DNA of 64,000 bases from a virus (IMGVR_UViG_3300002520_000024:1-64000), one strand, 5' to 3'; shown: positions 5,820 through 19,927, counted from the first letter of the stretch. A program made the numbers and translations. The notes: generated by a model from the sequence alone, not told the origin.

Positions 5820-6572
5820 ATGGCAACTGCAAACACCAGACGAAACGACGACGCAAACGAGGCAGACCTCTACATCACCCAACCGGAAGATGTGGCCTGC
5901 CTCTTTGTCATGCTTGAGAAGCACGGGATAAGCCTGCCACATGGGACAATCCGTGAGCCGTTTGCCGGTCGCGGCGATATTGCCAAGTACCTTGAGCGCC
6001 GCGGGTATACCGTGGTGAGTACAGATCTGAACGATTATGGCGATTGGGGTTACGGGAAAAGCGGGGAGGACTTCTTCAAGCAGGACTTCACCCAATGCGC
6101 CGCCATTGTAACCAACCCACCGTACTCTGAGATCAATGATGTGGTGCGCTACCTCGGCGACGAGATGCCAGAGCAGTCCATGGTTTGCATGCTGGTGCGC
6201 CAGCAGTTTCTGGAGAGCGCCGATCGCGTGTCGATCTTGCAGCAATACGGTGGCCTGAATTGGGTATTCCAGTACGCCTATCGCACCCTCTGCCCGCGGA
6301 TAGACCACACCACCGGTGAAGCCATCTACCATACTGAGAAGGTTGTTGGTGGCAAGACCAAGAAGACACCTGAGCCGCGAGCTGTGGCCTACTGCTGGGT
6401 GGTCTTCGATTACAGCTACACCGGCCCAGTAATGCTGGATTGGATCACCAAGGATGTGCAGGCTGCAGCCCGGGCCGAGATGGTCAAGTTGCCAATCCAC
6501 CCGGAGGATGCCAAGCGTGCCGATCAGCGGGTGGCAGCAAAAACTGGCGGGTTTAAAATCGGGGTGTTTTAA
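5820..6572 (+). CDS. DNA N6-adenine methyltransferase
   Basis: SAM-binding motif EPFAGRGDI and catalytic motif IV IVTNPPYSE. Confidence 0.8.
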   Translation: MATANTRRNDDANEADLYITQPEDVACLFVMLEKHGISLPHGTIREPFAGRGDIAKYLERRGYTVVSTDLNDYGDWGYGKSGEDFFKQDFTQCAAIVTNPPYSEINDVVRYLGDEMPEQSMVCMLVRQQFLESADRVSILQQYGGLNWVFQYAYRTLCPRIDHTTGEAIYHTEKVVGGKTKKTPEPRAVAYCWVVFDYSYTGPVMLDWITKDVQAAARAEMVKLPIHPEDAKRADQRVAAKTGGFKIGVF

Positions 6573-6629
6573 TTTCAAAAATCCTGCAAAAATAAAAGCC
6601 TGCAGGATCTAGCAATCAGAGGAAACACC

Positions 6630-7520
6630 ATGTTCAAGATAGGCGGCAGTCAGCCAGCGCCCCAGGCCAGAGAGCCTGAGCACCTGGAGGTAATACCGGC
6701 TGAGACCAGGCCAGCAGTTGCGCTTATCGACGAGCTGGTTACCAGGGTTGGCGGCATTGACCCTGGAACTGACATCGACGACCAGGGGCTGGCCGAGCGC
6801 GATGCTGGTATGGCCAGCTTCGCCACGCTGCCGGCTGACGAAAAGCACGCAGTGCTGCAGCTTATCCAGATGGAGGAGTCGGATCTGTTGCGCATGGTTC
6901 AAAACTCTGGGGCTATGCTCGGGCAGTCCCGCGAGAGCCGACTGGCGAGAGAGGCCCGCCTAGCCCTGGTGCACCGCATGACACTGCGCGGCGACACACT
7001 GGAGAGAATGTCTATCCGTCTTGGCATCAGTATCAGCCGGGTTGCCCAGCTGAAGAAGGTGGTTAACGAGCGGATCCGTAACCAGATCTCCAGGGTGGAT
7101 TTCGGCTTGTACGCTGGGCAGCAAATGTCCTTCTACCAGCAGGTAAAGTACACCGCCCTCAGCCTCTCCGAGGACAAGAGCATGCCAGCCACCGCCAAGA
7201 TGTCAGCCCTGGTGCTGGCGCTACGGGCAGCAAAGGACGAGCAGGGTTTCCTGCGGCACTGTGGGGTGTTCAAGCAGTTCACCCATGGCGATGACCTGAT
7301 CAAGCGCCTGCAGACCGAGGACAATGGCACCGGCGGCTCAGCCAACACCATGACCGACATAGCGATGGCCTTCAAGAAGATGGCTGTCATCGCGGCCAAG
7401 GGTGGGAACCTGGAGGAGGCTGTCGACGCCGTGCTGGTCGAGGAGAACAAGCTGTGGGAAGAGTCTGATGTTTTCGACGCTGACGACGAGGACGGATCCC
7501 CGCTCAACATTGGCCAATAA
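6630..7520 (+). CDS. DNA-binding protein with sigma-70 region-4-like HTH
   Basis: REARLALVHRMTLRGDTLERMSIRLGISISRVAQLKKVVNERIRN resembles the sigma region 4.2 / LuxR-type HTH. RBS GAGGAA. Confidence 0.6.
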   Translation: MFKIGGSQPAPQAREPEHLEVIPAETRPAVALIDELVTRVGGIDPGTDIDDQGLAERDAGMASFATLPADEKHAVLQLIQMEESDLLRMVQNSGAMLGQSRESRLAREARLALVHRMTLRGDTLERMSIRLGISISRVAQLKKVVNERIRNQISRVDFGLYAGQQMSFYQQVKYTALSLSEDKSMPATAKMSALVLALRAAKDEQGFLRHCGVFKQFTHGDDLIKRLQTEDNGTGGSANTMTDIAMAFKKMAVIAAKGGNLEEAVDAVLVEENKLWEESDVFDADDEDGSPLNIGQ

Positions 7521-7542
7521 AAGTTGAGAATTTCCACAAAAT

Positions 7543-7579
7543 AAAAAGCCTGGTGAAAATAGCATCAGGCTTTTTTTTC
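7543..7579 (+). terminator. rho-independent terminator
   Basis: AGCCTG-13 nt-CAGGCT followed by T8. Confidence 0.6.
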
Positions 7580-7613
7580 TGGAAAAAACCTGGAAATTTC
7601 CACAAATAAAAAA
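7567..7613. repeat. left copy of a ~45-bp imperfect direct repeat flanking the early cluster
   Basis: AGGC-T8-CTGG-A6-CCTGGAAATTTCCACAAATAAAAAA aligns with 16396-16440. Contains a TTTCCACA DnaA-box-like 9-mer and a T/A palindrome. Confidence 0.5.
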
Positions 7614-7752
7614 GCCTGTAGAAACTAGCAATTCCAGAGATCCGGGAGGGCGCCGTCGCGCCTCTCCTCGCCAGGCGGCAGGCAGGGGCGGGCGCCAGGC
7701 TGAGCGGGCGGTTGCGTTATGGGGCAGGCGGGGGACTGGTCTGATCTCACTA

Positions 7753-7768
7753 TGGCACGCGGCTTGCA
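7753..7768 (+). promoter_or_regulatory. sigma54-type -24/-12 element
   Basis: TGGCACGCGGCTTGCA is a full match to TGGCACG-N4-TTGCW. Confidence 0.45.
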
Positions 7769-7778
7769 TAACGGTGCT

Positions 7779-8070
7779 GCCAGGACGCCACAGGTAAGGC
7801 CCTGCCCTTGATGGCAGGCCGCGCCAGTAGCAGCAGGCGGGGCGCTGTTGGTTCGGTCAATGCCAAGGTGGCGGGGTAGGTTGGCGGTTCGCCACAGGGC
7901 CGCACAATCGCCAACAAGGCGGGGGCCAATGATGCTGTTTCGGGTTTGCGTGGTGTTGTTGCAGTGGATCGGGGTATCGTTGCGAATCCGGCCCCTACTG
8001 TTGCAGGATGGGGGCCTAGTGTCACGGCGGCCAGGCAATAGAAAAGGGGGCCACCAGCGGCCCCCTTTTT
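7779..8070 (+). ncRNA. candidate structured ncRNA (~290 nt)
   Basis: GC-rich stretch with no credible ORF, lying between the sigma54-like element and a strong terminator. Many local hairpins, e.g. GTGGCG...CGCCAC and GGCCCC...GGGGGCC. Confidence 0.3.
8042..8070. terminator. bidirectional rho-independent terminator
   Basis: AAAA-GGGGGCC-accagc-GGCCCCC-TTTTT. Confidence 0.75.
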
Positions 8071-8071
8071 G

Positions 8072-8197
8072 CTACATCAGGATCAAGATCTTCCAGTCAA
8101 CCGCCAGATACAGCAGGACGGCGACCACTATCAAAAAACCCTTGTAAATGACTTTCCATTGCTTTCTGTGATCATCCCATTTCTGGGGGCTACTCAT
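8072..8197 (-). CDS. small membrane protein (41 aa)
   Basis: ATG overlaps the upstream stop (TAATG). Sequence MSSPQKWDDHRKQWKVIYKGFLIVVAVLLYLAVDWKILILM has one TM segment. Below the ORF-track length cutoff. Confidence 0.4.
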   Translation of the reverse strand: MSSPQKWDDHRKQWKVIYKGFLIVVAVLLYLAVDWKILILM

Positions 8198-8508
8198 TAG
8201 CCCGCCACGATATGCCCAAGGCCATCAAACAGCCTGACCGATTGCTTGACCTCTTGCCCCATCAGGTAAACGCGCTCGCTTACCTCTACGCCGGATCCGG
8301 TCACAATCGCCACCATGGTGACAGTGACCCCGCTCGGCTTGGTGTTGTTGCAGGACAGACAGATCGGGCCGCCTTGCTCTTTCTGGTGCACCAGGATCGG
8401 CCCGTGCTGCTTGTGCGGTTGCAGGGCGTCCAGGATGGCAGGGGTAACAGACACCAGCCCGAACGGGCCGGAGATCTTGCGCTGGTTGCGTCTTTTTTTC
8501 GTGCTCAT
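8197..8508 (-). CDS. hypothetical protein
   Basis: 103-aa ORF. ATGA coupling to the upstream gene. Confidence 0.6.
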   Translation of the reverse strand: MSTKKRRNQRKISGPFGLVSVTPAILDALQPHKQHGPILVHQKEQGGPICLSCNNTKPSGVTVTMVAIVTGSGVEVSERVYLMGQEVKQSVRLFDGLGHIVAG

Positions 8509-8846
8509 GGTTTCACCGCCTTGATGTAGTAGGACAGGATCGCACCGTAGGCGGCCCGCTGGCCCTCCAGGTAGCGATCAAAGGATCCCCGCGCTCTGGT
8601 AGCCCAAGCCGCTTGATTGTGCAGCTCCAGGGCCAGGCGCGGGCATGCTTGCACACTCTCGCCCAGGTCAAACAAGCGGCGGGCCACGTCCAGCCGGACA
8701 GATACGGCCAGGGGTTGCCCTTTATGGTCACGGATAACCGACCCCCGCGCAATAGCAGCGGCGATCACCCCATCCCGATAGGTGGCGGCTTGGTGATTCT
8801 GGGACGTGAAGCGGCGGTACTGGCTCACAACTGATTCTAAGCTCAT
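8505..8846 (-). CDS. hypothetical protein
   Basis: 113-aa ORF. RBS GAGGG. Confidence 0.6.
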   Translation of the reverse strand: MSLESVVSQYRRFTSQNHQAATYRDGVIAAAIARGSVIRDHKGQPLAVSVRLDVARRLFDLGESVQACPRLALELHNQAAWATRARGSFDRYLEGQRAAYGAILSYYIKAVKP

Positions 8847-8856
8847 GGGCTGGCCC

Positions 8857-9207
8857 TCAATGGTGGCGGCTGGGGTTGAATCCGTGGGCGGCTTGGTGCA
8901 GGTATCCGCTGACCAGGATCTTGATCGGGGCGGTAAGGTTCGATCCCTCCAGGTTCAACAGTGAGCGGGCAGCCACCAGGGCAGCACGGCAGCGGCGGCC
9001 ACTACTGCGAGCCACGGCAGGCAGCAGGGCGGCCACTCTCCAGCAACCTCTAACACTGAGGCGGCGGGCTTGTGCCCAGCCTGCCCGCAATGTATCCGCC
9101 CAGGTGGCGAACAAGGGGCGGCCACCAGCGGCCACCACGGCGCGATCCTTCTTCCAGATCGCTTGTGCAATGCGCATTGCATCAGGGCCGTAATTGTGTT
9201 TTTTCAT
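8857..9207 (-). CDS. hypothetical protein
   Basis: Internal ATG 9207 (MKKHNYG) preceded by AAGGAAA. The longer ORF version would run through the promoter. Confidence 0.6.
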   Translation of the reverse strand: MKKHNYGPDAMRIAQAIWKKDRAVVAAGGRPLFATWADTLRAGWAQARRLSVRGCWRVAALLPAVARSSGRRCRAALVAARSLLNLEGSNLTAPIKILVSGYLHQAAHGFNPSRHH

Positions 9208-9258
9208 GGTCTGATTTCCTTTTCTGCTTGGCATTATTGCCGGGTTACTACCGGGTAA

Positions 9259-9301
9259 ATAGTAGGTGACAAGGAATAAAAAAACCGTGAGCAGGGTCAC
9301 G
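9259..9301 (-). promoter_or_regulatory. class-II-type promoter with CRP-like dyad
   Basis: Dyad CGTGAGCAGGGTCACG at 9286-9301. -10 TACTAT (minus strand) at 9259-9264, 29 nt from the dyad centre. Confidence 0.6.
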
Positions 9302-9325
9302 GTTTTGATTATTACTGTTTAGGTG

Positions 9326-9787
9326 CTATACGCCGCTTTTTTGCAGCATAGACCGCGCTTTAAGCAAGGCCGCAATAATTGCCTCCTGCTCTGCGATATA
9401 TTCCATTATCCAGCCATCAAGGGCGCGGCATGCTTCATCAGCAAAGGCCGTTATTGCAGCCTTGCCAGCGTCCTCTAATATGTAGCCATGGCAAGAGGCA
9501 GCAGCCCCCAGGCTAGAAACCTCGAACTTGTCGAAGTGCAACCCTTTAATTGAGGTTGTCGGAATAGATGATCCGGCGTCAATATACCAATCATCCTTTA
9601 GGCTTTGTTTCATCTTGTAGGGGTATTTGTTCAGGCTACCATAAATAGCCAAGCCCCCTTTCTCCGCGCTCACTGTTACCGTGGGGTGTCCGTGTGATAG
9701 TCTGACCCGTGCGGTAACAGTAACCAGGCTTTTGCCATTGTTCGCAGCGATAAAGTCAATCGCCTCTTGCTTGCGTGAATCACTCAT
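9326..9787 (-). CDS. hypothetical protein
   Basis: 153-aa ORF. Conserved leader CAAGGAAAGAGGG. Confidence 0.7.
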   Translation of the reverse strand: MSDSRKQEAIDFIAANNGKSLVTVTARVRLSHGHPTVTVSAEKGGLAIYGSLNKYPYKMKQSLKDDWYIDAGSSIPTTSIKGLHFDKFEVSSLGAAASCHGYILEDAGKAAITAFADEACRALDGWIMEYIAEQEAIIAALLKARSMLQKSGV

Positions 9788-9823
9788 TTAATAACCCTCT
9801 TTCCTTGCGCTGTTGATAGGGTA

Positions 9824-9866
9824 AATATAGCCAAGGTCCAAATAAAAAACCGTGAGCAGTGTCACG
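9824..9866 (-). promoter_or_regulatory. class-II-type promoter with CRP-like dyad
   Basis: Dyad CGTGAGCAGTGTCACG at 9851-9866. -10 TATATT at 9824-9829, 29 nt from the centre. Confidence 0.65.
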
Positions 9867-9887
9867 GTTTTAATAAAGGCTTTTTAT

Positions 9888-10148
9888 TTAGGAGATCTGT
9901 TGGACTGTTATTTTAACAGTGCGTGATCCGCCCCAGCGCCCGACTACGTTAGCCGAAAATTCGACACCATCAGCAACGGGGGCCATGTTGCTAATACTGT
10001 AATTTTTGCCAAAGTTGGTACGGATTGCGCTATTGGCGGCGGCCAGGTGATCCAGGGGCTCCCCCTTCTCTTTGACGCTGACGGAAGCAGATCCACGGGG
10101 CGCACCGGATGCGGACAGATTCACGATCTTGACTACAAATTTTTTCAT
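9888..10148 (-). CDS. hypothetical protein
   Basis: 86-aa ORF. RBS AAGGAAG. Confidence 0.65.
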   Translation of the reverse strand: MKKFVVKIVNLSASGAPRGSASVSVKEKGEPLDHLAAANSAIRTNFGKNYSISNMAPVADGVEFSANVVGRWGGSRTVKITVQQIS

Positions 10149-10163
10149 TTTGCGGACTTCCTT

Positions 10164-10328
10164 TTATTGGGTAATTACGGCCACCAGGGCGGCGGCTTTG
10201 ACGTTCAACCAGTGCCCCAAAATCGGGGCACTCTTCCAGATTATCAGACCATAGGCGGCAATCAGTCCCACTTTCTTTGATCCGGTGATCAGCTTGGCCG
10301 CCTTGGTTGCCTTTTCATCTACAAACAC
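10164..10328 (-). CDS. possible small membrane protein (54 aa, GTG start)
   Basis: AGGTGG lies 5 nt before the GTG. Hydrophobic segment GLIAAYGLIIW...AAALVAVI. Fills the gap between two genes. Confidence 0.3.
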   Translation of the reverse strand: MFVDEKATKAAKLITGSKKVGLIAAYGLIIWKSAPILGHWLNVKAAALVAVITQ

Positions 10329-10338
10329 GGCTGCCACC

Positions 10339-11241
10339 TTAGAAAGTAAATGCCCAGTCTTTGGCCTTGGCGAACTTCTCCAGCTCTGCCCGCATATCCG
10401 CCACCAGGGCGGGGACGCGCTCGATCAACCCGTCTACGTCTTGCAGTTGTTCAAGGGTTGCATCAGGCCAGGCGGCACAACTACGGGCAGCGTCAAGATC
10501 CGGCGCCTTGCCCTTGCTGTAGTCGCTGGGGATCTTGGCAACCACTACCCCCCAGCGTTTAGCAGCGGCGGCGAACTCCCGCGCCTTGCTTTCTGAGTTA
10601 AAGGGCGCTTTGTGCCAGTCATACGGCGGCAAGGGATAGCCCTCGAAAGTGTAGCGGGTATAATCTCGCCCTTCTGATTTATGGGTTACCGGAACAACGG
10701 CCAGGCTAGGCCACTGATCAACAGGCTTATCATGCCAGGTCAAGACCCAGGCGCGAAAGCCATCAGATTCAGCGGACATTGTGATCGGGCAATCGTCAAA
10801 CACGAAGAAATGATCCCAGCTTGACGGCTCGCCAGCGCGGCGGCCCCAGCAATCCCGATCACCAGCGTGATAGATGGCATTGCCTACGGCGTGAGAGAAG
10901 ATAGAGCCCAAGCCGATAAGGTGGAACCGGATCAGCGGCGTAACCTCTGGGAACACTTTCATCAGAATTTCATGGATACAGCCACAAGTATCAGGATCGC
11001 TTTCCTTCATCATCTTGCCAGCAAGCCAGGCGCTACCCGTAATCCCCATTGAGTTATAGCCGTTTTTACAGTGGTCGTCCCAGCGGATAGTACAATCAAC
11101 GCGGCGGAAGGTTTCGCCTTTTACTTTAAAATGGCCGTCCTTGCGCAGAGTCAGGCTTTGGCTATTGGTGCGGGTGGACATAGCCAAAATATCAGCCTTG
11201 ATTTGATCAGCGCGGGCTTGCTGCTCTTGGGTAAATGCCAT
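10339..11241 (-). CDS. hypothetical protein (300 aa)
   Basis: Long ORF. Leader CAAGGAAAGAG. Confidence 0.75.
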   Translation of the reverse strand: MAFTQEQQARADQIKADILAMSTRTNSQSLTLRKDGHFKVKGETFRRVDCTIRWDDHCKNGYNSMGITGSAWLAGKMMKESDPDTCGCIHEILMKVFPEVTPLIRFHLIGLGSIFSHAVGNAIYHAGDRDCWGRRAGEPSSWDHFFVFDDCPITMSAESDGFRAWVLTWHDKPVDQWPSLAVVPVTHKSEGRDYTRYTFEGYPLPPYDWHKAPFNSESKAREFAAAAKRWGVVVAKIPSDYSKGKAPDLDAARSCAAWPDATLEQLQDVDGLIERVPALVADMRAELEKFAKAKDWAFTF

Positions 11242-11289
11242 GATATCTCTTTCCTTGTGTTAGCTGGGGCGGCTGCCCCAGTGGTTTAA

Positions 11290-11331
11290 ATATTACTCGA
11301 ACCAGGATTAAAAACAGTGATCAATGTCTCA
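11290..11331 (-). promoter_or_regulatory. class-II-type promoter with CRP-like dyad
   Basis: Dyad AGTGATCAATGTCTCA at 11316-11331. -10 TAATAT at 11290-11295, 28 nt from the centre. Confidence 0.55.
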
Positions 11332-11712
11332 CTCTTTGACTCTGGCTGTTACATAGATTTCTACAGTCTCAGGCAAATTATCAGCGCGGCCCTTGCGAAA
11401 GTTGTTAGCGTCATACTGAAAAGTAAATTCCAGGTCTTCGGCTGCCACTGGTGCATATTTACCAGATCCCAACTTCTGGACAAATAAACCCTTGTAATCC
11501 TCCAGTGGATAGCAGCGGCGTTTAATAAGGCTTTCACTGGGCACACCTTCCAGATAATAGGATCCATCGCCTGTGCCAAAATTGCTCGGGAAAATACCAT
11601 CTTGATCCCGTGCAAGGTATTCAAGGCTTACAGGTTCACCGACCAGTAACCGCCCCTCCCCTTCTATTGCCTGAAAAACCGCGTAAACTATTGCGCCTTT
11701 GTAAAGTTCCAT
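11329..11712 (-). CDS. hypothetical protein
   Basis: 127-aa ORF. Leader ACGGAAAGAGGG. Confidence 0.7.
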   Translation of the reverse strand: MELYKGAIVYAVFQAIEGEGRLLVGEPVSLEYLARDQDGIFPSNFGTGDGSYYLEGVPSESLIKRRCYPLEDYKGLFVQKLGSGKYAPVAAEDLEFTFQYDANNFRKGRADNLPETVEIYVTARVKE

Positions 11713-11750
11713 TGCTTGACCCTCTTTCCGTGTGGTGTATTGATACTTGC

Positions 11751-11792
11751 AGTATAGCGACCACTATTTAAATAACAGTGATCGCCGTCACA
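11751..11792 (-). promoter_or_regulatory. class-II-type promoter with CRP-like dyad
   Basis: Dyad AGTGATCGCCGTCACA at 11777-11792. -10 TATACT at 11751-11756, 28 nt from the centre. Confidence 0.6.
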
Positions 11793-11794
11793 AA

Positions 11795-12373
11795 TTAAAT
11801 AATCAGATCATGCTTGGTGCAGAAAGCCAAAATATCGGGGTTTTCGTGCAGGTATGCGCGGATCTGTTTGTAATAGTCGCCCTTCTTATATTGCGGGCTT
11901 TCTTCGGTTACAGCGAAATCACAGTATATCAGGTAAAGCAGGCTTGATATAACTTTCGGGTGCATATCATCAAAGCACTCGACAGATTCGCGGACTTGAT
12001 CCCACAGCTCCAGGGCAACGGCTTGCCGATCTGCCCCGACCATGACCGGATCCCATGGGGTATAATGGGCACGGTCGCCACAGGCGCCAGGCAGGCGGCT
12101 TGTGTTGAATTGCTGGACGGCGTGATCCGGTGCATAGTCGCACACATTAACCAGGATAGGCCTTGCCCCTTTTGCGTACAGCTCGCGGCCCAGGTGTTGC
12201 CCAATCACGCTGATAGCTTCAACGTGAGCCCCAAGGCCCGCCGCCTTGTCTTCTGCCCAGGCGGACGCTTGCCCAAGGCTATAGGCCAAGGCAATATAAA
12301 CCTCTGCCCGCCCGTTGCTATCGTGGCGGTGGACGGTCTTGTAATACTGGGGGATCTGGTATTCGGTTTTCAT
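11795..12373 (-). CDS. hypothetical protein
   Basis: ATG 12373 (MKTEYQ) preceded by CAAGGAAAGAGGG. Confidence 0.7.
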   Translation of the reverse strand: MKTEYQIPQYYKTVHRHDSNGRAEVYIALAYSLGQASAWAEDKAAGLGAHVEAISVIGQHLGRELYAKGARPILVNVCDYAPDHAVQQFNTSRLPGACGDRAHYTPWDPVMVGADRQAVALELWDQVRESVECFDDMHPKVISSLLYLIYCDFAVTEESPQYKKGDYYKQIRAYLHENPDILAFCTKHDLII

Positions 12374-12394
12374 GGTGTTGCCCTCTTTCCTTGC

Positions 12395-12423
12395 GGCGGC
12401 CCCGCCGGATATCGGGGGGCCTA
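12395..12423 (-). repeat. 29-nt GC-rich hairpin at the 5' end of a transcript (copy 1)
   Basis: GGCGGCCCCGCCGGATATCGGGGGGCCTA is identical to 14178-14206. It starts a few nt after the predicted TSS. Confidence 0.6.
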
Positions 12424-12432
12424 CTGGTGTTG

Positions 12433-12475
12433 ATACTGGCACAAGCCAGGGAATAAAACAGTGATCACTGTCTCA
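12433..12475 (-). promoter_or_regulatory. class-II-type promoter with CRP-like dyad
   Basis: Dyad AGTGATCACTGTCTCA at 12460-12475. -10 CAGTAT at 12433-12438, 29 nt from the centre. Confidence 0.5.
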
Positions 12476-12718
12476 CTTTTCAGCCTTGAAGTGATTCAGC
12501 GCGGATTCGAGCAGATCGGCCGCCTCCTGCTCTGTGCACACCAAGCGGTGATCCCATGCAAGGTGCAACAGGTCGGTGATCAGATCTTTGGTAGCATCGA
12601 TCTGGTCTTGGCGCGGCATGCTATCGGGCCAGCCCTTGGGGTTGCGCTTGGCATAGTGCATTTTCAAGGCTTCACGTGCCGCACGGGCGCGGGCTTGATT
12701 CTCGGTTTCGGTTGTCAT
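12473..12718 (-). CDS. hypothetical protein
   Basis: 81-aa ORF. Leader CAAGGAAAGAGG. Confidence 0.65.
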   Translation of the reverse strand: MTTETENQARARAAREALKMHYAKRNPKGWPDSMPRQDQIDATKDLITDLLHLAWDHRLVCTEQEAADLLESALNHFKAEK

Positions 12719-12752
12719 GTGGTGCCTCTTTCCTTGTGTTGTTGACGGGTTA

Positions 12753-12795
12753 AATGTAGCCCACGCCGTAGAAAATAACCGTGACGCCGGTCACA
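12753..12795 (-). promoter_or_regulatory. class-II-type promoter with CRP-like dyad
   Basis: Dyad CGTGACGCCGGTCACA at 12780-12795. -10 TACATT at 12753-12758, 29 nt from the centre. Confidence 0.65.
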
Positions 12796-13114
12796 TATTC
12801 AAAAGGTCGATTGCTTGTTTTTTCAGGTCAAGGCGGTGGCTGTGGCATACCCGCCCGATCTGCTTAATAGCCAACAGCTGGGCGGGGCAGCGTACCCCCA
12901 GGCACAAGGCCAGCAGAGCGGGGGAGCGCCACCATAAACGGGGGGCGGCCCCGTAGACCATAGACCCCCAGCGATCGCCTATCGGGTCGAAAACAATCGC
13001 ATTGCAGCCAAGGGGGGAAACCTGCCCGCTACTGTCAATAGACAGGTAACCCAGGGCAGGCCCCCCGCTTGGGGTGATATCGGGGATCACCATTGGCCCC
13101 CGCTTGGCTACCAT
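12791..13114 (-). CDS. hypothetical protein
   Basis: 107-aa ORF. Start uncertain: ATG 13114 or ATG 13093. Confidence 0.5.
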   Translation of the reverse strand: MVAKRGPMVIPDITPSGGPALGYLSIDSSGQVSPLGCNAIVFDPIGDRWGSMVYGAAPRLWWRSPALLALCLGVRCPAQLLAIKQIGRVCHSHRLDLKKQAIDLLNM

Positions 13115-13410
13115 CCCGTGTGCATGCCGTAAGCTGCCCAGGATGGCAGGCTATCCGGTAATGTGGCATTCTCCAGCCATTGGATCATGGCGGCCTTGGT
13201 GCGCTGCTCCCGTGGGATATTGCGGGGGGTTCGCCAGTAGGGGTAATCTTCATCCTGTCGCCAGTCGCCTGATTTTGGGGCAGCGACTACCATAAATTCG
13301 GCGCTGGCCTGTGATACGCTAAAATCAATGTCATCGTACTTTTCCCAAAGGCCGGACGTGTCCACGTCTTTGATCTGCTCTAATGCCTTCTCAAAATCAA
13401 CACAGCACAA
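13108..13410 (-). CDS. hypothetical protein
   Basis: 100-aa ORF with a TTG start. Overlaps the upstream gene. Confidence 0.5.
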   Translation of the reverse strand: MCCVDFEKALEQIKDVDTSGLWEKYDDIDFSVSQASAEFMVVAAPKSGDWRQDEDYPYWRTPRNIPREQRTKAAMIQWLENATLPDSLPSWAAYGMHTGW

Positions 13411-13903
13411 AAGGCGCCCGCCAGGCAGAGAAGGGGATAACCACTAACCCGATCAGGTACTCCAGCGGCGGGGCGCCGTTAAAGCAGATTGCGCCGTTTT
13501 GATCAGACCCATCATATGATTCGTCATACTCCCAGCCGCCGGATTCATCACCGATTATCTCGGATGGCACGTCAAAAATTAATACTACCTTGTGGCAGTC
13601 GCTCATAGAGTAGGCCGCCGCGATATCAGCGGATCCGAAAGCCTGCTTGATTGTATGGGCTAGGCTTTCGGCTCGCTGCTCTTCGGGGAGGTCATCTAGA
13701 TCCGCGTCCTCCTCTTCCCAGTCTGACGTATCAATGTGCCCGAACCGGATCAGCTCTTCTTCGCTCCAGGCGTAGAAATAACCATCATTATCGGGGCAGA
13801 GCCAGGGCGAGCCGCTGATCACGCTGCGCTTGTCTGCATCAGCCTTGGCGCTTGCGATGATAGCGGGGATCAGTTTGCTGGTGGTGCCATGAGTCAAGAT
13901 CAT
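13397..13903 (-). CDS. hypothetical acidic protein
   Basis: 168-aa ORF. Leader CAAGGAAAGAGAAA. Acidic run DWEEEDADLDDLPEE. Confidence 0.7.
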   Translation of the reverse strand: MILTHGTTSKLIPAIIASAKADADKRSVISGSPWLCPDNDGYFYAWSEEELIRFGHIDTSDWEEEDADLDDLPEEQRAESLAHTIKQAFGSADIAAAYSMSDCHKVVLIFDVPSEIIGDESGGWEYDESYDGSDQNGAICFNGAPPLEYLIGLVVIPFSAWRAPFVLC

Positions 13904-13930
13904 TTTCTCTTTCCTTGTGATCGTGGGTGA

Positions 13931-14161
13931 TTAGGGTTGTTCGGTGTGGGTTTTGCTTTCGGTGATCAGCATACCGATCACCCCAACCAGCAGGCAGAAG
14001 ATCGCTGTCGCGCCAGTCAGCGCCGCTTCCCCTGTGGTGATAAGCCCGAGATTGTTACCAAAGATAACCATCAGGGCAGCCACAGAGCCAACGGCAGCAC
14101 ATACGGCGCAAAATACAAACAGGGCATTGGTTGCGGGGTGGTTGTTGTTCGGCTTTTCCAT
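13931..14161 (-). CDS. small membrane protein (2 TM)
   Basis: ATG 14161 preceded by GGAGAA. Hydrophobic segments FVFCAVCAAVGSVAALMVIF and ATAIFCLLVGVIGMLI. Confidence 0.6.
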   Translation of the reverse strand: MEKPNNNHPATNALFVFCAVCAAVGSVAALMVIFGNNLGLITTGEAALTGATAIFCLLVGVIGMLITESKTHTEQP

Positions 14162-14177
14162 CTGTCTATTCTCCATT

Positions 14178-14206
14178 GGCGGCCCCGCCGGATATCGGGG
14201 GGCCTA
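14178..14206 (-). repeat. 29-nt GC-rich hairpin at the 5' end of a transcript (copy 2)
   Basis: Identical to 12395-12423. Confidence 0.6.
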
Positions 14207-14218
14207 GTTGATGGGGTA

Positions 14219-14261
14219 ACTATCGCACAGGTTTTACAGGTTGTCCGTGACAGCGATTACA
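14219..14261 (-). promoter_or_regulatory. class-II-type promoter with CRP-like dyad (inside the 3' end of the upstream gene)
   Basis: Dyad CGTGACAGCGATTACA at 14246-14261. -10 GATAGT at 14219-14224, 29 nt from the centre. Confidence 0.5.
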
Positions 14262-14884
14262 GAACTGTTTGGAGTGTTGACAGAGATTACCCCCCAGGTA
14301 TTGAGGCAACCAGCATCAGCCAGGGCCTTAGAGAAGGCGGCGGGGGTAAACAGTCTAGCCCGCCCGTTAGGCCCCTCTGTAGCCTCAATCTCTGCCAGGG
14401 CGTAGGAACTGGGGAAATTGACAGTCACACAGACTAGGCCATAAGGGCGGATAATCCGGCGGTCACTAGCCACCAAGAGATCGGATCCGCAATCGCTGAT
14501 ATCGTAGAGGTTTTCTAACAGCCGATTGAAGATGTCCTGTTTGCATTCTGCAAAGCAGAACCAGCAATCGATCGGCTTGCTACGGGCGCCAAGCTCCCGA
14601 TCCGCATAGACGGCCATCACTCCAACCTGACGGGCCATTGTGTAATATGTTTCTGCCAGCAATTCCAGGCAGTGGGCGGGCAGGTGCGCCAGCGGAAAGC
14701 CCTTTTCACCCTCAACCAGGGCGGAGATCTCCATGCCGTCCAGCTGGTTTTTCTTGATAGCGTCGAGGTTACGGTAAGCCAGGGCTTTGATGCGCTCGAT
14801 CATCAAAATGTGATCTTGCAGCTGGTCGATCGGCATGTTAGCCAGAATGTTAAAATGCGCTTGAGTATCTTTGATTTCGATCAT
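14234..14884 (-). CDS. hypothetical protein
   Basis: 216-aa ORF. Leader CAAGGAAAGAGG. Confidence 0.7.
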   Translation of the reverse strand: MIEIKDTQAHFNILANMPIDQLQDHILMIERIKALAYRNLDAIKKNQLDGMEISALVEGEKGFPLAHLPAHCLELLAETYYTMARQVGVMAVYADRELGARSKPIDCWFCFAECKQDIFNRLLENLYDISDCGSDLLVASDRRIIRPYGLVCVTVNFPSSYALAEIEATEGPNGRARLFTPAAFSKALADAGCLNTWGVISVNTPNSSVIAVTDNL

Positions 14885-14954
14885 GATAGTCGCCTCTTTC
14901 CTTGTGTTGAATCCCCGCCCAGTAGCGGGGGAGTTGTCTTATTCGTCTTCGCTT

Positions 14955-15458
14955 TTAGCTGTGGCGGGGGTACGCATCATTGAGAAAACCGATCATTGCC
15001 TCTTCGGCCTCCTCGTTATTCAGATCCATAGCGTCCAGCTCTTCCGGCGTATAGATGGCAATGGCGTAGCCCTGTTTTCTGATCTCACGGCTAAGGGCGA
15101 TCAGCGCATCGTACAAGGTAGGGTGATCATCAGCGCCACTTTCTGGGGCCTCATTGCTGGGGCAGTCGTCAGCAGGGCACTTGTCCAGGTATTCACCGGA
15201 GAAGACACGACCACACTGATCACAGTGGCAACCGTCAAAGCGGATCCAGCCCTTGGCGGTGATCTCTTTCAAAGCAGAAGTGAAACCGTTCACCCGCCAA
15301 AACTTGTTAACCTGCATCACCCCATCAGCATCAACCAGGGCCAGCGCCAGGGCTACGGGCTTTTCGCCCGCTTCGGTTTTTGGCGTGACGTGGCCCAGGT
15401 ATGCAACCTTCCCGTTTTTGATAAATCCGGTTTGCTCATTCTTAGGCTTGATGATCAT
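14955..15458 (-). CDS. hypothetical protein with Cys-rich ribbon
   Basis: ATG 15458 (MIIKPK) preceded by CAAGGAAAGAGAAA. CHCDQC...CPADDC motif. Confidence 0.7.
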   Translation of the reverse strand: MIIKPKNEQTGFIKNGKVAYLGHVTPKTEAGEKPVALALALVDADGVMQVNKFWRVNGFTSALKEITAKGWIRFDGCHCDQCGRVFSGEYLDKCPADDCPSNEAPESGADDHPTLYDALIALSREIRKQGYAIAIYTPEELDAMDLNNEEAEEAMIGFLNDAYPRHS

Positions 15459-15507
15459 TTTCTCTTTCCTTGGGTTAGGGGCTCGCCTCATTGCGGGCCA
15501 TGGTTAG

Positions 15508-15549
15508 ATAATAGCGGGGTCACAGAATAAAACAGCGACCCCGATCACA
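15508..15549 (-). promoter_or_regulatory. class-II-type promoter with CRP-like dyad
   Basis: Dyad AGCGACCCCGATCACA at 15534-15549. -10 TATTAT at 15508-15513, 28 nt from the centre. Confidence 0.6.
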
Positions 15550-15552
15550 CTT

Positions 15553-15912
15553 TTAAATATTCGCCAGGGCTTGGGCTAATGCCTTGCGCTGGTAGTCCGG
15601 CACAGCGGCGACAGCCTCCCCCATCGCATCAAGGAAATCATCAGGCAGGCCGTAGCCTGTTTCTGTCTTGTGCAGATAGGCCCAGGATCGGCAGAGCACA
15701 GAGCCAAAGTGATCCAGCACGTCCCGAACCAGGGCGGGGCGGGTGTGTTTATGCTCACTGGCAAAACCCAGCTCGCCCAGGTGTTGGAGCATAGCCCCCG
15801 CCGTTTGGTACTGGTAGGATTCGACAATATCCAGGTCAGCCGTCAGGCTCTCCAAAACCGAGCCCTCTACAACCTCGATCACCCAGTCGTAAACAATGCG
15901 CTTGGCCATCAT
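15553..15912 (-). CDS. hypothetical protein
   Basis: ATG 15912 overlaps the upstream stop (ATGA). Confidence 0.6.
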   Translation of the reverse strand: MMAKRIVYDWVIEVVEGSVLESLTADLDIVESYQYQTAGAMLQHLGELGFASEHKHTRPALVRDVLDHFGSVLCRSWAYLHKTETGYGLPDDFLDAMGEAVAAVPDYQRKALAQALANI

Positions 15913-16310
15913 TCGCCCCCTTGAGCCCGATAGTGATCCCCCAGGGTTTGAAGCATAGCGCGGGCGCCTGCTTTCCACTCCTCGCACTCTTGCTCATAGG
16001 GCACAGCCTCAACCTTGAAATAAACCTCTGCCCCCCTGTGGTTGTAGAGCGACACTAAATCAGCCGCTTCCTGTGCACCATAGCGGCGGGCTTTCATTGG
16101 CACGGGGTCGAAAGTGGTAGTGCCCCGCAACTTGACAAGGTAGCCGGATCGGTAGGCTTGCCCGACTGCATCGCTTGAGGTGTCAGGGTTCGCTATTACG
16201 CGGATCAAGTAACCGCGATCACCCTCGCCTAGCTCTTGATAGTGGTGCAGGGTAACGGCGGCTTGCAGGTTTTGCATGAGATCCGCCAAATACAGATCAA
16301 AGGCTTTCAT
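15909..16310 (-). CDS. hypothetical protein
   Basis: 133-aa ORF. Leader CAAGGAAAGAGAAG. First gene of the leftward cluster. Confidence 0.7.
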   Translation of the reverse strand: MKAFDLYLADLMQNLQAAVTLHHYQELGEGDRGYLIRVIANPDTSSDAVGQAYRSGYLVKLRGTTTFDPVPMKARRYGAQEAADLVSLYNHRGAEVYFKVEAVPYEQECEEWKAGARAMLQTLGDHYRAQGGE

Positions 16311-16341
16311 CTTCTCTTTCCTTGTTGGTTACTGTTGGGCC

Positions 16342-16384
16342 ACTATAGCGGCCATCTTTTAAAAAAACCGTGCTGGTTGTCACA
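16342..16384 (-). promoter_or_regulatory. class-II-type promoter with CRP-like dyad
   Basis: Dyad CGTGCTGGTTGTCACA at 16369-16384. -10 TATAGT at 16342-16347, 29 nt from the centre. Confidence 0.65.
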
Positions 16385-16395
16385 CTTTTCGATAA

Positions 16396-16440
16396 AGGCC
16401 TTTTTTTCAGAAAAAGAGCTGGTTTTTTCCACAAAAAAAA
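16396..16440. repeat. right copy of the ~45-bp imperfect direct repeat flanking the early cluster
   Basis: AGGCC-T7-CAG-A5-GAGCTGGTTTTTTCCACAAAAAAAA aligns with 7567-7613. Confidence 0.5.
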
Positions 16441-16581
16441 TTGCATGGCGGATCTAGGGATTCTCTCCTCTCCTCCCCCTCCCCCCATCCCCTGGCGCCC
16501 CCTCCCTGGCGTGGATTCGGGGGACTACCCAAGACAGGGGGCCAGCATCACCAGGATCGGCGAACTGGTCGGATCTCTGTT

Positions 16582-17368
16582 TGGCATGGCGCTTGCATGG
16601 GTCGGGGGGCGACAGGCAAGAGCTGTGCCAAGTTCGCGCCATGCAAAAGGAAAGGCGAGCCAGAAAATCGGTATGCAAAGCCCGTGCCAAAATGGCGGGC
16701 TACCCCTCGCAGAAAAAACGGGGGCATGCAAGAGACGTGCCAACATAGGCGGATCCCTCCCTAGACATTTTAGGGACACAAACCCAAGCAAGGGCCGTGC
16801 CAGTTTTTTACTTTTCTTGCCAGGTAGCCAAAAAAACCGCCAGCCCAGCAAAAAGCGTGCCAAGACGCAACGCCGAAAAAAGGGCGAGCATCCACAGCAA
16901 ATAACATGCCAAGATCACCATGATCCGGCCTCCATTAGATCGGTTTCCTAGTGCCGATAACCCTAGCCCAATGGCAAGAAAAAACCAGTGATCGGCGTCA
17001 CATTTTCACCCTGTAAAGGCTAAAAACTTTTGCCGTCAAAAACCGTGCCAACAATGCACCGTTTTTGTGATTCACGTCAAATACTTAACACACAAGGAAA
17101 AACGGGGGCCGTACCATGCAAAAACGGGGCCAGATCACCCCCTATAGAGCAGGATCTCCAACGTATGCAAACCCCGTGCCAACCCATGCCGAAAATCGGG
17201 GCCGACTGGCCGATCATAGTAGTGCATCTAGTAAGAGATCTGATCCCTTTGCGGTAGCAAATTACGTGCCACAAATAAAACTTTCCTCCTCCAGATCGCT
17301 TGTCCCGTGCGCCGCTTCCTTGCACCATGAAAATAATAACGCGCCTTCTCCATGCAAGGCCCGTGCCA
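16582..17368. repeat. tandem array of sigma54 -24/-12 consensus-like elements (iteron-like)
   Basis: Eleven minus-strand copies start at 16615, 16674, 16727, 16787, 16847, 16896, 17035, 17117, 17166, 17256 and 17353 (16 nt each). One plus-strand copy lies at 16582-16597. No credible ORF in the region. Confidence 0.7.
16960..17002 (-). promoter_or_regulatory. possible class-II-type promoter inside the repeat array
   Basis: Dyad AGTGATCGGCGTCACA at 16987-17002. Weak -10 TAGGGT at 16960-16965, 29 nt from the centre. Confidence 0.4.
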
Positions 17369-17399
17369 CGTCACGGATTTTCTACGCCGTGAAAAACTT

Positions 17400-17461
17400 T
17401 GTGACGCCGCTCACACTTTTTTACTTTGTCGCCTTGCGCCTTCTTTTTTCTTGCCTATAGT
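17400..17461 (+). promoter_or_regulatory. sigma70-like promoter with upstream CRP-like dyad (class-I-like position)
   Basis: Dyad TGTGACGCCGCTCACA at 17400-17415. TTGCGC (17434-17439), 16-nt spacer, TATAGT (17456-17461). Dyad centre is at about -60. Confidence 0.45.
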
Positions 17462-17511
17462 CAAAGGGCACTAAGGCGAACCCGCCACAACCACGAAAAG
17501 GAAATCTGACC

Positions 17512-17772
17512 ATGAAAGCAAAAGAAGTTATCCAGACCTTGGGCCGCCAAACCCGCAACGCCGCTTTTGTCGAGTGCCTGCCCGTGTCCCTTCTTTTTGG
17601 TGACACCTCCACCACTTATCTCGGTGGCGAGGCCGTACCGCCCAGCGCCAAATATCCGACCCGCGCACAATTCAAAATCCGTGCCAAGGTTGCGGCGCTG
17701 GTCGGTTGCTCCACGGGCGACTTTGAGGCCATCGATCGCCACCTCAACAACGCCGCCAGTTACCGCGCATAA
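17512..17772 (+). CDS. hypothetical protein
   Basis: 86-aa ORF. RBS AAAGGAAA. Confidence 0.55.
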   Translation: MKAKEVIQTLGRQTRNAAFVECLPVSLLFGDTSTTYLGGEAVPPSAKYPTRAQFKIRAKVAALVGCSTGDFEAIDRHLNNAASYRA

Positions 17773-17789
17773 GCAAAGGATGTGCCAAA

Positions 17790-17999
17790 ATGAAAAGCCT
17801 TGTTCAAGCCGTAGATCTGGGGACGGCTCCCCGTATGTTTGATCTCTACATTGGGCTGATCCGTGTCGGGTATGTCGGGCAGGTTGGCGAGTGCCGTTGG
17901 CGGGGCTGGTTCAACGGGCACGGGCAGATCGTGGGCGATACCCTTTTGCAAGTTTTGGGCCAAGCCGAAACCATCGCCCAAGAGGGGGACAAGGCATGA
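17790..17999 (+). CDS. hypothetical protein
   Basis: 69-aa ORF. Confidence 0.5.
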   Translation: MKSLVQAVDLGTAPRMFDLYIGLIRVGYVGQVGECRWRGWFNGHGQIVGDTLLQVLGQAETIAQEGDKA

Positions 18000-18112
18000 T
18001 CGACAGTCTGGTTTTTCTGGCCCTCTTTGTGGGGTCGGTGATCGGGGCCGCTGTGACGGGCGGCCTAGTTCCGGCTCTGGTTGTGCTCGTGCTTTTCTCC
18101 ATCGCCGCCTAG
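17996..18112 (+). CDS. small membrane protein (38 aa)
   Basis: ATGA overlap with the upstream stop. Sequence MIDSLVFLALFVGSVIGAAVTGGLVPALVVLVLFSIAA. Confidence 0.4.
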   Translation: MIDSLVFLALFVGSVIGAAVTGGLVPALVVLVLFSIAA

Positions 18113-18340
18113 CAAAACCCGTGCCATCTTTTTATGCGCCGATCTGACTAGATCGCGCTATTCAATAGTTGAGAGGGGGCCTTTATGGTTATGGCGCAAC
18201 GGGGGGCCGATCGCTGTAATCGCGTCCTGCGCGTTTTGGCGAGGGCCGTTTTTGCCGATCGGGCCGTTTTTGGCCTGGCAACCTGGCACGGTTTTTGATC
18301 ACTGCTTATCCATTCATTTGGTTGCATAGACAAAAAACTA

Positions 18341-18401
18341 TGTGATCAACGTCACATTTTCTTTCTTTTCCCCGCGCAAGTTTTCGGGGCTTGGCTATAC
18401 T
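18341..18401 (+). promoter_or_regulatory. promoter with perfect CRP-type dyad upstream
   Basis: Dyad TGTGATCAACGTCACA at 18341-18356. -10 TATACT at 18396-18401. Dyad centre is at about -60. Confidence 0.4.
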
Positions 18402-18455
18402 TATCACATCAGGTAGGGAATGACTCCCCGCCGCACGTGAGAAGGAATGCCAGCC

Positions 18456-18680
18456 ATGAAAACCGTTCACACTATCTTGTCAGGCCTGCTAAACCCGTCA
18501 GTCTGCGAACTGGAGGAGGCCGCCTATCAGGTCGGTCGTTTCGAGCAGTCCGCTATTATGGATCCCGAGCTGGAGCGCCTGATCAGTGAGACTTATCCCG
18601 ACAGCGATCTGATCTGGTCTCGTTGCTATGACGCGCACCAGCAGGGCCGCGCTGACCAAGACGCCCAAGAAGCCGCCTAA
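18456..18680 (+). CDS. hypothetical protein
   Basis: ATG 18456 lies 9 nt after GAAGGA. Confidence 0.55.
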   Translation: MKTVHTILSGLLNPSVCELEEAAYQVGRFEQSAIMDPELERLISETYPDSDLIWSRCYDAHQQGRADQDAQEAA

Positions 18681-18721
18681 TCCGAATCAAAAACCGTACC
18701 AACTTTTAAGGAATCGATATC

Positions 18722-19483: not shown

Positions 19484-19504
19484 AAGCAAACCCCATGCCA
19501 ACTT

Positions 19505-19891: not shown

Positions 19892-19927
19892 AGGGACGAC
19901 TGGCCTACGGCCGTGACCAGCCAGCGG

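Follow-up and report, generated by a model that had tools for sequence, protein, structure and literature searches.

The leftward gene cluster at positions 8072-16384 of IMGVR_UViG_3300002520_000024:1-64000 is composed of modular cassettes, in which a repeated promoter-leader-ribosome binding site (RBS) unit is set around unrelated small open reading frames (ORFs), and comparison with related phage sequences supports the view that this array evolves by cassette shuffling. The analyzed stretch, 64 kb long and referred to below as the window, is a portion of an uncultured, siphovirus-like phage whose whole genome comprises ~95 kb. For the region as a whole, the best explanation, to which somewhat better than even chances are given, is a cassette-built early module with activator-type units that undergoes shuffling and likely belongs to a terminal repeat.

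The repeated unit and its palindrome

In each unit, an A-tract, the palindrome GTGA-N6-TCAC, a T-tract, an interval of 21-22 nt, the hexamer TAnnnT, a leader, the RBS string CAAGGAAAGAG and an ATG codon follow one another. Eight full units, called U1, U2 and U5 to U10, are located within 8072-16384, where they precede g1, g3, g9, g10, g11, g12, g15 and g16 of the cluster genes g1 to g19. A repeat search detected 11 copies of the 30-nt palindrome unit in the region 7000-20000, eight of them in this range. The original prediction counted ten promoters in the cluster, a number that is reached only with outside copies (16988, 17401 and 18342). It also described a repeated regulatory unit punctuating the leftward cluster, and this is borne out by repeat-family, palindrome, RBS and spacing counts that lie far above chance. 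The pattern GTGAS-N5-KCRCKGTTDTT gives nine matches against 0.06 expected, while GTG-N8-CAC followed by TAnnnT at 21-22 nt occurs 12 times, compared with 0.7 +/- 0.8 in Markov simulations. The string CAAGGAAAGAG is present nine times (eight exact) against 1.1 expected, always on the minus strand between 9797 and 16324 and nowhere else in the 64 kb. Across the 86 strand-sites of the whole window, the distance from GTG-N8-CAC to the next TAnnnT shows a single sharp peak at 22 nt.

Individual copies differ in how closely they follow this scheme. GTG-N8-CAC is exact in five of the eight in-range units and in three copies just upstream. The consensus first proposed, AAAAnC-GTGA-N6-TCAC-GGTTTTTT, holds exactly for U9 and U10, but the other copies are looser: their left half-site reads GAGA or GTGA, their right one GCAC, TCGC or TCAC. 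The RBS string lies 3-9 nt ahead of ATG in seven of the eight units, if the one-mismatch variant CACGGAAAGAG of U7 is counted, and the RBS of U10 is divergent (AAGGAAA). Before g4 and g6, the junction carries the RBS motif but no promoter; the remaining genes, with neither unit nor RBS string, are translationally coupled or separated by short spacers.

A register alignment of 13 units, taken from the window and from the related contigs L001 and L004, is almost gapless from the palindrome to the -10 box. No unit departs from G.G and C.C in the palindrome, from TT.T in the T-tract or from the A and T within TAnnnT, and the stretch from the T-tract to the -10 box is not conserved. As motif positions are invariant while the spacer varies, this pattern indicates constraint on motifs and their spacing, and not recent duplication. 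A scan for the sigma-70 consensus (-35/-10) matches none of the units, because the -35 hexamer is absent. The two G-C pairs of the palindrome never vary, the intervening T-A pair is disrupted in 5 of the 13 units, and no covariation was detected in the stem among these units. Hairpin pairing is fulfilled in 80.8% of cells versus a column-shuffle mean of 80.1%, with 219 of 500 shuffles at least as high. Invariant G-C pairs, together with pairing no better than in shuffles, indicate that the palindrome is conserved as a sequence and not as a stem. On this sequence evidence, it behaves like the site expected for a dimeric DNA-binding protein and not like a generic terminator stem.

It had been proposed that the hairpin and the U-run make every unit a terminator as well as a promoter. 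Terminator quality was found in U9 and U10, whose hairpins reach -12 kcal/mol with 6-7 U, but not in the other copies, which give -6 to -10 kcal/mol; the terminator at the cluster end has -21.9 kcal/mol. A terminator scan was passed only by U9, U10 and, marginally, U5. A dual terminator function is thus limited to two of the eight units, U9 and U10, for which it is plausible.

All eight units are oriented on the minus strand. U1 (16308-16389) has its palindrome at 16370-16383, the -10 box TATAGT at 16342-16347 and the RBS at 16314-16324, followed by the ATG of g1. In U2 (15456-15554), the palindrome GTGATCGGGGTCGC (15535-15548) is followed by TATTAT (15508-15513), the RBS (15462-15472) and the ATG of g3. 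The palindrome of U5 (12716-12800) at 12781-12794 contains the g8 stop codon TGA, and TACATT (12753-12758) and the RBS (12726-12736) lead to the ATG of g9. U6 (12371-12480) consists of the palindrome GAGACAGTGATCAC (12461-12474), CAGTAT (12433-12438), a GC leader hairpin (12395-12423) and the RBS (12383-12393) before the ATG of g10, whereas U7 (11710-11797) has its palindrome at 11778-11791, TATACT at 11751-11756 and its variant RBS at 11722-11732 before the ATG of g11. U8 (11239-11336), serving g12, includes the palindrome GAGACATTGATCAC (11317-11330), TAATAT (11290-11295), a GC hairpin (11264-11281) and the RBS (11247-11257). U9 (9785-9871; AAAACCGTGACACTGCTCACGGTTTTTT) carries its palindrome at 9852-9865, TATATT at 9824-9829 and the RBS at 9797-9807 ahead of the ATG of g15, and U10 (9205-9306; AAAACCGTGACCCTGCTCACGGTTTTTTT) carries its palindrome at 9287-9300, TACTAT at 9259-9264 and the divergent RBS AAAAGGAAA ahead of the ATG of g16; both form the weak terminator-like hairpins mentioned above. 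The promoterless g4 junction (14882-14933, minus strand) contains a GC hairpin (14912-14933), the RBS CAAGGAAAGAG (14894-14904) and ATG, and the g6 junction (13904-13917, minus strand) has only CAAGGAAAGAG at 13907-13917.

Some leaders carry GC-rich hairpins of their own. An identical 29-nt hairpin (TAGGCCCCCCGATATCCGGCGGGGCCGCC) is present in the leaders of g5 (14178-14206, minus strand) and g10 (12395-12423, minus strand), and the GC hairpins of g4 and g12 lie just 5' of the RBS and have no U-runs. These elements may be mRNA-stabilizing or processing structures.

Cassette shuffling in related lineages

No nucleotide relative of the cluster was found by megablast against 50,697 phage records. 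Near-identical contigs come from two metagenome sources, namely L001, L002 (JGI 3300002513) and L003; among them, L001 is a 95.5-kb Logan contig ~97% identical to the window. The 84.5-kb JGI contig L004 encodes proteins ~40% identical to those of the window, and L058 is a 21-kb ENA contig reached via a g14 profile. L042, a 1.8-kb fragment, is the only true relative among the 41 loci of a metagenome pattern scan, the others being chance matches. Scans of IMG/VR with g12 and with the strict unit pattern gave no match, and a looser unit pattern led to the L004 lineage only.

When L001, L004, L042 and L058 are compared with the window, at least seven gene insertions, deletions (indels) or replacements have their junctions at unit edges or at the RBS-ATG string, and the unit itself is kept in all four lineages. 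The first two events concern L001, which has two extra genes upstream of g1, with U1 as the breakpoint. One end of this indel is the 3' edge of a 68-nt boundary element plus palindrome, and the other is the CAAGGAA RBS string. Because that end falls in the RBS string, U1 of the window can be understood as a hybrid that joins the promoter of gene B to the RBS of g1. The third event affects the slot between U9 and U10, which is occupied by g15 in the window, by g15, g5, g8 and an AT-rich ORF in L004, and by X, an unrelated gene of 224-225 amino acids (aa), plus g5 in L042 and L058. Homology in this slot covers the 3' end of g14 together with the unit and its RBS, is lost directly behind the ATG and returns at the A-tract of the next unit.

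Two further events are deletions in L058: this contig is without the g10-like ORF and unit u2, so that CAAGGAAAGAGATC-ATGAAA is fused to g12, and it is also without g16, the RBS of u4 being joined at the ATG to g17. The sixth event concerns the first slot of the cluster, where L004 has a g9-like gene and L058 the unrelated o90. Finally, g13 occurs in the window, L042 and L058 but not in L004, and g5 and g8 are placed differently in the window and in L004.

The units also stand out by their conservation. Identity between lineages is 70-74% in the unit versus 35-48% in adjacent coding DNA, and 90% versus 62% in another comparison; the U9-orthologous units of L004, L042 and L058 are likewise more conserved than the flanking coding DNA. 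Since ORFs are inserted, deleted or replaced at the units, and chiefly at the RBS-ATG string, the array appears to evolve by cassette shuffling in the manner of the promoter-early stem-loop elements (PeSLs) described below. The original prediction had regarded the cluster as a modular array around unrelated small ORFs and a candidate shuffling zone, and had expected ORF gain and loss to break at the repeats; the junctions, found at the A-tract edge or at RBS-ATG in L001, L004, L042 and L058, agree with both expectations.

The unit is absent from the more distant bearers of g12 homologues, L007, L009-L011 and the phage KASIA, and these sequences, as they do not carry it, were left out of the junction analysis. 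L009 and L011 have their own repeated TTGACA-type promoters, L007 has no comparable repeat, and nothing recognizable was found in L010. With junction evidence from four lineages, PeSL-type shuffling, so far described only for T4-like myoviruses, is extended to unrelated uncultured phages of ~95 kb. The unit offers a sequence handle by which variable early genes of this phage group, possibly with anti-host or anti-defense roles, can be found in metagenomes, and the cassette boundaries are precise enough for cloning each ORF.

Transcriptional control: a possible activator site and its alternatives

The E. coli CRP consensus is TGTGA-N6-TCACA. If TAnnnT is taken as -12 to -7, the 14-mer palindrome of the unit extends from -48 to -35, with its dyad at -41.5. 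This predicted geometry is that of class II (and, for some sites, class I) promoters of CRP/FNR-family activators, the transcription starts themselves being predicted. In canonical promoters of NtcA, a member of the CRP family, GTA-N8-TAC is centered at -41.5, 22 nt from TAN3T, in a class II arrangement (PMC3898017). Two other readings of the same sequence were rejected: GTGACA as a -35 box would require a spacer of 30 nt, and an N4-type hairpin promoter would need the hairpin at another position and a virion RNA polymerase, of which none was seen.

Palindromes outside the cluster show a second spacing. The copy at 17401-17414 (plus strand) is placed 41 nt upstream of TATAGT in the promoter of a divergent rightward operon, which is a class I-like position, and that at 18342-18355 (plus strand) lies 40 nt upstream of TATACT, before a plus-strand gene starting at 18447. 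L004 and L058 repeat this arrangement, with 22 nt at cluster units and 41-42 nt at two divergent-operon promoters. The two spacing classes (22 versus 40-42 nt) differ by about two helical turns. A shared palindrome, TGTGA-N6-GCACA at 46406-46419, serves both strands, as TAnnnT is found 22 nt away on each, followed by a Shine-Dalgarno (SD) sequence and ATG of two divergent genes. Class members without A/T tracts are intergenic on the plus strand at 31751-31764, 34239-34252 and 38268-38281, and the first and last of these follow separate GC-rich terminators. A ninth leftward unit, upstream of the cluster range, has its palindrome at 16988-17001 (minus strand), then 22 nt, TAGGGT and a 36-aa hydrophobic ORF. 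This ORF (MVILACYLLWMLALFSALRLGTLFAGLAVFLATWQEK, ~16808-16921, minus strand) overlaps several sigma-54-like sites, and small hydrophobic ORFs occupy the equivalent place in L004 and L058.

In the proposed mechanism, a dimeric activator of the CRP/FNR-family type would bind the palindrome at about -41.5 and recruit host RNA polymerase in class II fashion, and, placed at about -60.5, the same site would have the class I role in the divergent operon. The activator would most likely be a host protein, present already at injection. Such a protein is the most economical candidate, because the cluster genes are probably the first to be expressed and the phage ORFs examined yielded no CRP-family gene. 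At U9 and U10, where A-tract, stem and T-tract are perfectly symmetrical, the transcript of the palindrome could form a weak terminator that would partly insulate neighboring cassettes.

A broader version of this idea, tentative and short of an even chance, is that nearly all early and part of later transcription initiation is handed to a CRP-family global regulator of the host, through early class II sites, class I sites in the divergent operon and the shared site of the divergent pair. If this were true, infection would be gated by a host metabolic signal. The ~90-nt unit, its site extended by the A and T tracts, would then combine activator site, weak terminator, translation signal and recombination handle, giving plug-and-play early cassettes. 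To our knowledge, a class II architecture across a whole phage early-gene array is not known from described phages. The unusual promoter logic suggested here is that activator-type palindromes replace -35 boxes in an early region; if confirmed, it would tie early phage expression to a global regulator of the host.

Several points weigh against the activator-type, shuffled and terminally repeated module. No CRP-family gene or other regulator was found in the window through Pfam searches of 20 ORFs and stored neighbor annotations, and ~31 kb of the genome lies beyond the window. The -10 assignment and the activator are both deduced from geometry, and a site at -41.5 could equally be the operator of a repressor. 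Half-sites also depart from the consensus: GAGA stands on the left in U6 and U8, GCAC or TCGC on the right in U1 and U2, and CCC replaces CAC on the right in two units of L004 and L058. We know of no CRP-dependent promoters for which a conserved T-tract at -34 to -27 is a feature. As for shuffling, intergenic junctions are partly expected by survivorship, because only ORF-preserving indels are seen, and the ends of single-nucleotide polymorphism mosaic patches between the window and L001 do not fall systematically at units. The putative terminal repeat, in turn, is proposed from analogy and contig ends.

Among the alternatives, the palindrome may be the operator of a phage-encoded dimeric regulator. 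This protein, a product of the cluster or of the divergent operon, could be a repressor or act in shut-off and would switch all early cassettes together, off or on; comparable cases are Cro-type proteins, T5 A1-mediated pre-early shut-off and mycobacteriophage stoperators. An operator of this kind is considered unlikely, although the same palindrome stands at every early-region and divergent-operon promoter, as for a phage-specific regulon, and although its half-sites co-vary with lineage (GTGAC…TCAC in the window versus GTGGC…GTCAC in L004, L042 and L058), which would suit a co-evolving phage protein. The conserved distal genes g14 and g16-g18 encode small basic proteins with isoelectric points of 9.8-11.8, and a small DNA-binding protein is annotated next to the g12 homologue of KASIA. 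However, no helix-turn-helix (HTH) or other DNA-binding domain was detected in the cluster ORFs by Pfam or PHROGs, and a repressor is not expected to act from ~60 nt upstream. Moreover, promoters without a -35 box need an activator, and the first genes read from injected DNA cannot rely on a protein still to be synthesized, except where the virion brings it along.

It is improbable that the unit mainly provides the preceding gene with an intrinsic terminator and the next one with an ordinary sigma-70 promoter of the host, with the palindrome working as an RNA hairpin. PeSLs are described as composite terminator/promoter motifs (PMC4122927), most units begin at or within the stop codon of the preceding gene, the hairpins of U9 and U10 score as terminator-like in both directions, and those of L004 u3 and u4 reach -13 to -15 kcal/mol; a stem position with A-T in the window and G-T in L004 and L042 would be tolerable as G-U in RNA. 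Yet six of the eight unit hairpins remain in the weak range even with A-U pairs, the lack of covariation goes together with an invariant GTG/CAC and an often broken middle pair, and the rigid spacing to the -10 box and the missing -35 box do not suit this explanation. The palindrome is also found where nothing upstream needs termination (17401), at the divergent pair (46406) and beside separate GC-rich terminators. It is highly improbable that the units have no regulatory role and were passively left behind by recent tandem duplication or gene conversion, the cluster being one operon read from upstream, for instance from the sigma-54-like array at 16616-17368. The dense array does face the cluster, and the junctions of g4, g5, g6, g13, g14 and g17-g19 have no promoter unit; but only functional positions are conserved while spacers differ, and the units, better conserved than coding DNA, keep orthologous positions in lineages with ~40% identical proteins. 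L004 and L058, in addition, have no sigma-54 sites and nevertheless retain the units.

The sigma-54 consensus TGGCAC(G)-N4/5-TTGC(A/T) has 13 exact matches in the window, compared with 0.39 expected, and ~17 sites when one mismatch is allowed. Eleven of the exact matches are on the minus strand at 16616-18802; they form a dense array at 16616-17368, with more copies up to 18802, all facing the early cluster and some antisense within plus-strand genes. Only the motif is conserved, not its flanks. The array is present in L001, and GGCCCCGTTTT repeats are found instead in L004 and L058. These sites could be real sigma-54 promoters, a sink or roadblock for the holoenzyme, or iterons; a literature search found no phage precedent for such an array.

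Cluster genes, boundaries and known counterparts

The cluster comprises 19 leftward ORFs of 41-300 aa, all on the minus strand from 16310 to 8072. None of them has a Pfam match on record, and only g2, g6 and g12 match PHROGs, all three families being of unknown function, in line with the early estimate of about 20 small proteins of no recognized family. The further suggestion of several tiny membrane proteins stands for g5, with two predicted transmembrane (TM) segments, and g19, with one; only those two are clear. The designation of the cluster genes as early is plausible by analogy with region I of Shewanella phage KASIA. Products of g1-g11 are mostly acidic, with g8 as a basic exception, those of g13, g14 and g16-g19 are basic, and that of g15 is near neutral.

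The proximal part begins with g1 (15909-16310; 133 aa, no known family), whose stop codon is overlapped by the start of g2 (15553-15912; 119 aa, phrog_15581). The C-terminal part of the g3 product (14955-15458; 167 aa) is homologous to 63-65-aa genes of L004 and L058. They are followed by g4 (14234-14884; 216 aa, no known family) and g5 (13931-14161; 76 aa), the latter having homologues placed elsewhere in L004, L042 and L058. The starts of g6 (13397-13903; 168 aa, phrog_3303), g7 (13108-13410; 100 aa) and g8 (12791-13114; 107 aa) overlap, and L001 has g6 and g7 as one fused 279-aa gene. The homologue of g9 (12473-12718; 81 aa) is the first cluster gene in L004. Next come g10 (11795-12373; 192 aa) and g11 (11329-11712; 127 aa), which is extended to 137 aa in L001-L003 by a 30-nt insertion.

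Downstream of the largest gene, g12 (10339-11241; 300 aa), g13 (10164-10337; 57 aa, GTG start) and g14 (9888-10148; 86 aa) belong to a conserved core, and g15 (9326-9787; 153 aa) occupies the slot taken by gene X in L042 and L058. The conserved distal block consists of g16 (8857-9207; 116 aa), g17 (8505-8846; 113 aa), g18 (8197-8508; 103 aa) and g19 (8072-8197; 41 aa); a homologue search with g16 returned only g16 itself. The cluster ends in a strong intrinsic terminator at 8041-8070 (minus strand; AAAAAGGGGGCCGCTGGTGGCCCCCTTTTC), to which the value of -21.9 kcal/mol refers.

The only widely distributed cluster gene is g12, with 59 homologues, including those of the cultured phages KASIA, Lana, JWF and Stilesk; its relatives are uncharacterized viral proteins only. 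The AlphaFold model of its product has a predicted local distance difference test score (pLDDT) of 95.6, and the PDB yielded neither a sequence match with the profile nor a fold match with the model at E<=0.001. Its conserved Asp/Cys/His motifs, DDxCGNGHNSF, CGCIHD and HYxANTxYHAGDRD, invite the guess that it might be a metal-dependent enzyme.

The cluster is bracketed by the 68-nt boundary element in three diverged lineages, represented by the window, L004 and L058. The upstream copy lies at 16396-16463 (minus strand; …CTAG…CATGCAATTTTTTTTGTGGAAAAAACCAGCTCTTTTTCTGAAAAAAAGGC), next to a G-rich run (GGGGATGGGGGGAGGGGGAGGAGAGGAGAG, 16463-16492, minus strand) just upstream of the cluster, and two tandem downstream copies detected by the repeat search lie at 7501-7634 (minus strand), preceded by GAGGAGAGG at 7661-7669. 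The element follows the pattern …CTAG…CA(T/G)GC-TTTTTTATTTGTGGAAATTTCCA…TTTTT…AAAAAA, and many columns are invariant in four aligned copies from the window and L004. Other copies are at ~8780-8830 and ~14350-14470 in L004 and at ~4950-5010 and ~9370-9440 in L058. The element is a candidate terminal-repeat boundary or packaging signal, and the G-rich run is a candidate terminal-repeat boundary as well.

Shewanella phage KASIA has an experimentally defined 6912-bp direct terminal repeat with early region I (PMC8541194), and its g12 homologue is located inside that repeat, within the region. G-rich runs mark both the internal boundary of the KASIA repeat and its physical end, and a similar run occurs upstream of the cluster in L004. 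An 8.3-kb JGI contig that spans the greater part of the cluster switches to other sequence within the 68-nt element, and two further contigs appear to end near the G-rich run. The position of the g12 homologue in KASIA and the bracketing element make a terminal-repeat early module probable; by the same analogy, the more specific proposal that the cluster is a single collapsed copy of a ~8.85-kb terminal repeat has about even odds. The first 112 nt of L002 (JGI contig D14H1_10000851) are AT-rich, unrelated to the window and joined inside the 68-nt element (window position 16445), which points either to a chimeric assembly or to a variant junction located at this element.

Beyond the cluster, the portal protein is ~31% identical to those of siphoviruses of 80-100 kb (Stenotrophomonas DLP_3, Rhodobacter RcZahn and Vibrio phages), and the window encodes a family A DNA polymerase and an exonuclease. 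No T4-like gene content was found among the window ORFs examined, no tRNA genes were found in the window, and an Rfam search of 6500-20500 gave nothing significant. With regard to the host, a scan of a genome collection with the portal protein gave no match. The whole window contains ~444 GATC sites against ~240 expected from base composition (~1.85-fold), and no notable enrichment of the cyanobacterial HIP1 palindrome GCGATCGC. Upstream of the L004 early region, positions 1-1191 of that contig encode a BCS1_N/AAA protein and a 168-aa Fis-type HTH_8 protein, and no homologue of the latter was found in the window by tblastn. A non-coding stretch at 19560-19920 (minus strand), between a plus-strand gene ending at 19483 and a minus-strand gene ending at 19928, contains repeated CACGCC(C/T)CAC-type motifs and A/T runs; L001 has a 456-nt insertion beside it, at window position 19484.

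Known systems share different parts of this organization. The stoperators of mycobacteriophage cluster A are asymmetric 13-14-bp repressor sites that block elongation. Like the unit, in which the protein-binding site is predicted, they are short conserved sites repeated in many intergenic regions with one transcription direction; unlike it, they are neither palindromic nor set at a constant distance from a -10 box. Closer in geometry are class II and class I promoters of the CRP/FNR family, with which the units share a palindrome of 14-16 bp in which G.G/C.C are conserved, a TAN3T -10 box at 21-22 nt without a -35 box, a second spacing class ~20 bp further upstream (class I, -61.5), and one site common to divergent promoters. 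They differ in that the A- and T-tracts beside the palindrome are shifted by 2 nt relative to the flanks of the CRP consensus, and in that the phage promoters are predicted ones.

As an early module, the cluster can be compared with the T5 pre-early region, the SPO1 host-takeover module and KASIA region I (PMC8541194). All have many small genes of unknown function in one direction toward the genome end and multiple promoters, as seen here in a unidirectional block of 19 small ORFs with eight promoter units. KASIA is similar also in its g12 homologue within a 6.9-kb repeat and in the G-rich run at the boundary. On the other hand, KASIA promoters are of the TTGACA type, no homologues of T5 A1/A2 or of SPO1 proteins were detected here, and the terminal repeat is putative, proposed by analogy.

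The nearest functional parallel is provided by PeSLs, the promoter-early stem-loop elements of T4-type myoviruses (Arbiol et al. 2010, PMC2839356; Comeau et al. 2014, PMC4122927), and the resemblance suggested at the outset holds functionally, as judged by the indel and replacement junctions at units. In both cases, copies of a short composite unit stand between small ORFs without known function, its AT-rich or stem-loop portion (A3-4G3-loop-C3T3-4 in phage nt-1) lies just 5' of the early promoter, and the unit ends in an SD sequence and a start codon. PeSLs, too, are clustered in the most variable (hyperplastic) region of the genome; mini-circle excision through recombination of tandem units is a further trait of the PeSL class. 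They have, however, sigma-70 -35/-10 boxes with an N17 spacer and a stem-loop upstream of -35, whereas here the -35 box is absent, the span from -48 to -35 is taken up by a palindrome with invariant GTG/CAC, and an 11-nt string specific to the cluster serves as RBS. The genome, moreover, has a siphovirus-type portal, ~95 kb and a candidate long terminal repeat, and is not of the T4 type. In effect, the unit works like a PeSL while lacking two of its defining features, the T4-type genome and the -35/-10 pair.

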